Program-made: the position numbers and the translations under genes
The notes under the pieces: model-generated
The model's input: only the letters and a program-made list of their open reading frames with translations
Told to the model about the DNA's origin: nothing
Databases searched by the model: none
NCBI GenBank assembly: GCA_040143965.1
Contig: JASJQH010000085.1
Coordinates: 1-32,175, forward strand
Reading direction: 5' to 3'
DNA from: Basidiobolus ranarum
Lineage: Eukaryota
Length of the DNA stretch: 32,175 bases
Part shown: positions 28,033-28,812 of the stretch, piece after piece
Layout: each line of letters opens with the position of its first letter
Position numbering within the stretch: the first letter of the stretch is position 1

Positions 28033-28812
28033 ATGCGATTCAACAAAAAGAAATCCATTGAAATCACGACAACAAAGCGTATACTAATTGGCGTATTGAG
28101 TGTAGAACTGGTATACTCTCCTTCGTTCTTAATCTATTTGTTAAGATATCTCAACCTTTCTTTCTGTTGCTTAGATCACTTTGCTGTTACTACTATACTT
28201 TGACCTTCGCCACGCTAAATCACCATTCCCGTATATCCCAGTAGTTGCGAATATGCTTTCCATTGTTATATGCGCTGTTAACATATACGCCTCACTTCGT
28301 TACATCAAACGGATTCTACTTCTTGTAGGAGTTGTTTTTAACATTGAACGTATTCACTGAAAAAGCTTACTTACTTAATTTAACTAGTATTCTTTATGGT
28401 GTGTCTTTTACGTTCTTTGGATTGTCTTTTGTATATTGACCAGCATGCACGTGATCAAGATTGAGAGTTACAATCAGGAGACTTCAACTAAACCATGGAT
28501 ATCCGATGAAGATGCCTTTGAATCCATACCAATTCAATATGGACTTTCGTTTGCTTGGTATTTACATTTCTTACTAAAAACCAGTGCACTTACCAGCTTA
28601 CTACTGGTTTACATCTTGGAGATTATTCTTACGGTAAGTATTAATGTTGTCTTATCAACCGAATGAGAGAGTAAACATGATTCATCATTTAGATTGCTAC
28701 TGCCATTCTGTCAATACTTGTTCGTCGTGCTTACCTAATCGAACAAAGACATTGGGATGATTTAGATAATCAAACCCTTACAAGAAGTTCCACCACGTGG
28801 TCTAAGTATTGA
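28033..28812 (+). CDS. NKAIN (Na,K-ATPase-interacting)-like multi-pass membrane protein, 197 aa, 4 exons
   Basis: Exons 28033-28110, 28175-28324, 28388-28633, 28693-28812, joined by three phase-0 GT-AG introns into one ORF: MRFNKKKSIEITTTKRILIGVLSVEL|ITLLLLLYFDLRHAKSPFPYIPVVANMLSIVICAVNIYASLRYIKRILLL|YSLWCVFYVLWIVFCILTSM...VYILEIILT|IATAILSILVRRAYLIEQRHWDDL...SKY*. TATAAAA upstream at 27879-27885. Confidence 0.8.

Follow-up and report, generated by a model that had tools for sequence, protein, structure and literature searches.

The NKAINs (NKAIN1-4 in animals), which associate with the sodium pump of animal cells, are still poorly understood. Excerpts of PMC3808344 describe them as beta1-interacting proteins that resemble no other known genes and are most conserved in the first two of their domains, and report that mutation of the Drosophila NKAIN leads to temperature-sensitive paralysis. 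Of 21 animal species, 18 were found to have the NKAIN domain, and so was a choanoflagellate, from whose genome it was reported; it was concluded that the family is older than animals; none from fungi is reported in the excerpted text of that paper (PMC6792448). As for the pump itself, Na,K-type alpha subunits are present in fungi of several phyla, none of them with the SYGQ alpha/beta assembly motif, while the beta subunit arose in Holozoa (PMC9609216, as excerpted). Because the fungal alpha subunits are described there as devoid of the assembly motif, the animal beta-subunit partnership is not simply transferable to a fungus.

The NKAIN profile of Pfam (PF05640) gives weak matches on unrelated membrane proteins, as seen in excerpts of two reports: an NKAIN match with an i-Evalue of 0.003 in a green-alga genome (PMC5509433), and NKAIN among the domains listed for the plant callose synthases CalS9 and CalS11 (PMC5683620).

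The window analysed here, a stretch of 32,175 nucleotides from the early-diverging fungus Basidiobolus ranarum (contig JASJQH010000085.1), contains at positions 28033-28812 of the + strand a genuine, already annotated protein-coding gene. The original prediction had read this region as four exons of a hidden fungal NKAIN homolog. The exon model is correct: the joined exons form a 594-nt coding sequence whose 197-aa product is letter-identical to KAK9767321.1, the hypothetical protein K7432_002982 of Basidiobolus ranarum (197 aa; hereafter P0001), which was retrieved with exon 3 alone at 100% identity. The gene is not hidden, since GenBank annotates exactly this splice pattern and a precomputed PF05640 label is already public; both the gene annotation and the automatic label are thus already known. 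UniRef gives P0001 the name "NADH dehydrogenase subunit 6". This name was rejected, as no NADH dehydrogenase family was found by Pfam in P0001 at E ≤ 10; it was probably attached automatically, and wrongly, to a hydrophobic sequence.

All of the features of the gene lie on the + strand. Exon 1 (28033..28110; aa 1-26) begins with the ATG and encodes a basic N-terminus and the start of helix 1; in the stop-to-stop frames, the ATG at 28033 is the earliest following an in-frame stop. It is separated by intron 1 (28111..28174; 64 nt, GTATAC...GCTTAG, after aa 26) from exon 2 (28175..28324; aa 27-76), which supplies the remainder of helix 1, helix 2 and a basic loop with the sequence LRY.K.ILLLY. 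This last motif, conserved across the Basidiobolus family described below, spans the next junction, its Y being the first residue of exon 3. Intron 2 (28325..28387; 63 nt, GTAGGA...AACTAG, after aa 76) contains an in-frame stop. Exon 3 (28388..28633; aa 77-158) encodes helix 3, an acidic external loop with a conserved S.PI.Y motif and the first part of helix 4, and is followed by intron 3 (28634..28692; 59 nt, GTAAGT...ATTTAG, after aa 158). Exon 4 (28693..28812; aa 159-197 and the stop) completes helix 4 and adds the cytosolic tail. The three introns are all GT-AG and in phase 0, and their GC content is 29-33%, versus 36-40% in the exons. Two further stretches can be placed on the gene: the span 28075..28462, which includes introns 1 and 2 and encodes aa 15-101, the only part matching Pfam NKAIN (placed from the exon table), and the codons 28720..28770, which encode the tail motif VRRAYL.EQR.WD.LDN (aa 168-184), the best-conserved motif of the family, located outside the NKAIN match.

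The expectation of about four hydrophobic segments was borne out by hydropathy and by AlphaFold helices, which place them at about residues 14-38, 43-68, 70-103 and 141-171. In the AlphaFold2 model built from an alignment of seven family sequences, a model of low confidence (pLDDT 63.4, pTM 0.46), the helices run over residues 5-38, 46-68, 73-106, 116-120, 127-139 and 143-196. Lysine and arginine together number 6 at the N-terminus, 3 in the helix 2-3 loop and 5 in the tail. The loop between helices 3 and 4, of about 30-40 residues, has 6 aspartate and glutamate residues and no cysteine. This positive-inside charge pattern suggests that both ends of the protein are cytosolic, as is the short basic stretch linking helices 2 and 3, and that the acidic helix 3-4 loop faces outwards. 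The animal proteins, as Gorokhova et al. reportedly described in 2007, are multi-helix proteins in which a long loop precedes the last helix and the tail is cytosolic. P0001 shares this architecture, including the small size, although such features are generic and common to many tetraspan families.

A more specific likeness comes from the Pfam profiles. NKAIN is the best match of P0001 (E = 5.2e-6, 26.5 bits, aa 15-101 aligned to profile positions 7-89 of 206), with an E-value that takes the number of models searched, 24,736, into account. The score exceeds the PF05640 gathering cutoff (25.9 bits) by 0.6 bits. The next match, to tetraspanin (PF00335; E = 0.013, 15.6 bits), lies about 11 bits under it and does not reach its own cutoff of 32.1 bits. 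The three other full-length members of the family, introduced below as P0002, P0003 and P0006, match NKAIN as well, all below the cutoff: P0002 with E = 6.3e-4 and 19.7 bits (residues 46-125 to profile 34-109), P0003 with E = 6.1e-4 and 19.7 bits (residues 46-112 to profile 34-99), and P0006 with E = 0.0077 and 16.1 bits (residues 47-105 to profile 33-91). For P0006, NKAIN is practically level with DUF7775 (E = 0.011). NKAIN is therefore the top match by E-value, in one register, in all four full-length members, with the cutoff passed by one of the four. These four matches are not independent because the proteins are 38-63% identical to each other. The published weak matches on other membrane proteins fall in the range of the three paralogues, whereas the E-value of P0001 is better than these by two to three orders of magnitude.

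The match does not run along most of the 206-position model, the alignments staying within profile positions 7-109 at most and covering the first three helices only. At E ≤ 10, NKAIN was found neither for the three natural C-terminal fragments of the family (P0004, P0005 and P0007) nor for any of the four exons taken singly, which are too short. Tetraspanin was missing at E ≤ 10 for P0002, P0003 and P0006, and no MARVEL model appeared at that threshold for any member scanned. As a control, the multi-helix PHO4 transporter encoded on the same contig gave no NKAIN match at E ≤ 10, its matches other than PHO4 reaching at most 13.2 bits. Searching outwards, phmmer against 1,835,955,588 representatives (E ≤ 0.001) and the family profile search detected no similarity to an animal or choanoflagellate NKAIN. 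The profile test suggested with the original prediction thus has NKAIN as the best match of P0001, above the cutoff, but the match is borderline, is confined to the first three helices and is below the cutoff in the paralogues. When residue numbers are converted to profile positions by the shift seen at either end of this match, introns 1 and 2 lie near NKAIN profile positions 18 and 64, and intron 3 lies outside the match.

The relatives of P0001 form a small family, seen in the phmmer, profile and metagenome searches in Basidiobolus only, B. ranarum having four of the genes and B. meristosporus three. A word-index search with the whole of P0001 returned, as 3 of 215 candidates, P0001 itself, the B. 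ranarum paralogue P0002 (63% identity) and P0003 from B. meristosporus (51%). The three proteins found by phmmer among the 1,835,955,588 representatives at E ≤ 0.001 were P0001 and the B. meristosporus fragments P0004 and P0005 (110-111 aa). When these five sequences were used as a profile, 7 of 5457 candidates passed E ≤ 10, every one of them from Basidiobolus; B. ranarum thereby gained P0006 (198 aa, 38% identity) and P0007 (98 aa). Metagenome contigs scanned for the family produced 88 pattern matches, none of which was confirmed. All of these searches reach relatives of P0001 only, so that fungal proteins matching PF05640 independently and dissimilar to P0001 would escape them.

Across the seven sequences, identity to P0001 is 36-63% and several motifs are invariant, which points to a family under selection. 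The strongest conservation in the alignment is found in the external S.PI.Y motif and in the tail motif VRRAYL.EQR.WD.LDN. Considering the four full-length members (P0001, P0002, P0003 and P0006), 15 of 30 columns are invariant in the tail, versus 26 of 87 in the part matched by NKAIN. The fragments P0004, P0005 and P0007 (98-111 aa) correspond to C-terminal halves only, beginning near helix 3 or the external loop; they could be gene models missing their upstream exons, or real short paralogues. P0003 (ORY03772.1) carries a 21-aa insert exactly at the site of intron 3 (alignment columns 162-182). Judging from the protein sequence, this insert is probably an unspliced in-frame intron in the public gene model, and if so, the position of intron 3 is common to both species.

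In the ESM Atlas, the outcome differed with the portion of the protein used. With the whole of P0001, no NKAIN cluster was found among the feature rows shown by the ESM Atlas. These rows include nematode MARVEL-like clusters at 0.90, a score that, according to the note of the tool, is reached by 4-10 of 100 shuffled proteins, and the Pfam labels of the clusters are "none common" or minority ones; the structure rows are all at TM 0.41 or below by query. With residues 1-110, NKAIN ranks first among the named clusters both by features (0.85, 176/256 shared) and in the structure list (over 92 aligned residues, with a TM of 0.73 by query and of 0.46 by row), in both cases under the bar set by the tool. 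The NKAIN family accounts for only two of the ten best named matches of this portion, and a tetraspanin structure row (TM 0.75 by query) is reckoned equal to the NKAIN one. With the AlphaFold2 model, none of the 184 PDB matches listed by Foldseek reached E ≤ 0.001, and a PDB sequence search with the family profile gave none at E ≤ 10; no NKAIN chain turned up in these PDB sequence and fold searches. The fold comparison suggested with the original prediction yielded nothing specific, neither NKAIN nor a better four-helix family. The weak Foldseek rows include small helical accessory chains (9vj4_B, TM 0.33, and 9ivc_B, TM 0.27, both by query; E 1.5-4.4, not significant). Chains of this kind, such as Kei1 of the Aur1-Kei1 inositol phosphorylceramide synthase, are named here as a functional analogy only.

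On balance, helices 1-3 of P0001 are probably, though only by a narrow margin, related very remotely to the NKAINs of animals and choanoflagellates. The main competing explanation, less probable but with a sizeable claim, is that of an orphan four-helix family of Basidiobolus, unrelated to NKAIN, in which chance or composition carried one member across a low gathering threshold. The score of P0001, 0.6 bits over the cutoff, and those of its paralogues, at 16-20 bits, are in keeping with such a coincidence, and the weak matches excerpted in PMC5509433 and PMC5683620 offer precedents on unrelated membrane proteins. No bridge to other taxa was found in the 1.84 billion representatives, the word-index profile search or the metagenome contigs; the NKAIN match includes neither the S.PI.Y loop nor the VRRAYL.EQR.WD.LDN tail, where conservation within the family is highest; and the features of the whole protein in the ESM Atlas point elsewhere. 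Against coincidence stand the E-value of 5.2e-6 after correction for all of the models and the gap to the next family, together with the recurrence of NKAIN alone, in a constant register, in four of four full-length members. For the first 110 residues, moreover, an NKAIN cluster independently ranks first among named clusters by features and by structure, and the multi-helix PHO4 control shows no NKAIN match. Membership in another tetraspan superfamily (tetraspanin, MARVEL-like or Glam1-like) is highly improbable. Tetraspanins and MARVEL-like proteins resemble P0001 in having four helices, the third and fourth joined by a longer loop; tetraspanin follows NKAIN in the Pfam list of P0001 and has the TM of 0.75 in the Atlas, and MARVEL-like clusters reach 0.90 by features. 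Nevertheless, their scores are far under the family cutoffs and are not common to the paralogues: tetraspanin attains 15.6 bits versus 32.1 in one of four full-length members, no MARVEL model appears at E ≤ 10, and a feature score of 0.90 is reached by 4-10 of 100 shuffled proteins. The large loop of tetraspanins bears a cysteine pattern, unlike the cysteine-free external loop of the fungal protein.

A further alternative concerns the origin of the gene and is a sub-case of homology: rather than descending from the animal-fungal ancestor, a true NKAIN could have entered the Basidiobolus lineage long ago by horizontal transfer, with an animal or some other holozoan as donor, and then have diverged fast and duplicated. 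This is considered unlikely. Relatives are seen in one genus only, and Basidiobolus inhabits the guts of amphibians and reptiles and is noted for its horizontally acquired genes (excerpts of PMC7466969); the choanoflagellate NKAIN, in a family said in the excerpts only to predate animals and with none given from fungi (PMC6792448), is in keeping with this alternative. On the other hand, the gene has three spliceosomal introns, a GC content like that of the contig and ordinary eukaryotic neighbours. The genes acquired by Basidiobolus, in the paper on its horizontal transfers, are said to be mainly bacterial. The narrow distribution, in turn, is not established, since the searches covered relatives of P0001 only. 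A recent transfer is excluded because the divergence is too great for phmmer to detect any animal protein. A bacterial origin was given no weight, with no prokaryotic relative in the phmmer or profile search.

Distant homology of helices 1-3, the preferred reading, keeps part of what the original prediction had claimed for the whole protein: the marginal Pfam match and its common register in the paralogues favour it, but no animal NKAIN is detected by phmmer and the likeness is confined to the N-terminal half. The Pfam model aligns to fungal helices 1-3, and the conserved part of NKAIN is its first two domains (PMC3808344, as excerpted). The external loop, helix 4 and the conserved tail are unmatched by the second half of the model and are specific to the Basidiobolus family, the invariant cytosolic tail motif being its own. 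The beta1 interaction of the animal proteins, likewise, is without evident counterpart in the fungus.

By analogy with NKAIN, a protein of the P0001 type would serve some larger membrane transporter as an accessory subunit with no enzymatic activity, the two packing helix against helix within the bilayer, while docking, sorting or regulation would fall to the conserved tail. Fungi are reported to be without a Na,K-ATPase beta subunit, which rules out the partner known from animals; the binding of a partner and the link to an ion pump are both suggested by this analogy. The original prediction had further proposed that the family predates the animal-fungal split. This is one of several readings, as the family is found only in the genus Basidiobolus, alongside an old horizontal transfer and a chance match. 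It would place the NKAIN fold already in the animal-fungal ancestor, before the beta subunit, as a beta-independent partner of transporters, with Basidiobolus as the only fungal remnant recognised and its copies duplicated and much altered. This scenario appears doubtful.

A true fungal relative would move the origin of NKAIN back to the animal-fungal ancestor, indicate an original role without need of the beta subunit and offer a non-neuronal organism for studying what NKAIN-type proteins do. If the homology holds, a known family would have a divergent member in a kingdom where none was expected; at present this is a modest lead rather than a result. The literature search found no paper joining NKAIN with Basidiobolus and none citing PF05640, IPR008516 or "NKAIN domain"; judging by title and abstract, none of the matches listed for NKAIN and fungi concerned a fungal NKAIN.

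The contig has ordinary eukaryotic gene content. Pfam identifies a UBR1-like E3 ligase with PRT6_C and UBR1 winged-helix domains (4177-7413, - strand), a calcineurin-like metallophosphoesterase (21417-22787, - strand), a CBM21 starch-binding-module protein (24227-25807, + strand) and a nucleoside diphosphate kinase (26563-27216, + strand). Three other frames of 175-337 aa, at 7588-8601 (- strand), 2050-2619 (+ strand) and 13481-14008 (+ strand), have no Pfam match at E ≤ 0.001. The occurrence of family members in two independently sequenced Basidiobolus species argues against contamination. Downstream of the NKAIN-like gene, a PHO4/PiT-type phosphate transporter (29231-30886, - strand) matches its Pfam model along the whole length (E = 3.4e-121). 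Many members of the PHO4/PiT family are sodium-coupled. The two genes are convergent, with the transporter about 420 bases from the stop of the NKAIN-like gene, an adjacency that may be meaningless.
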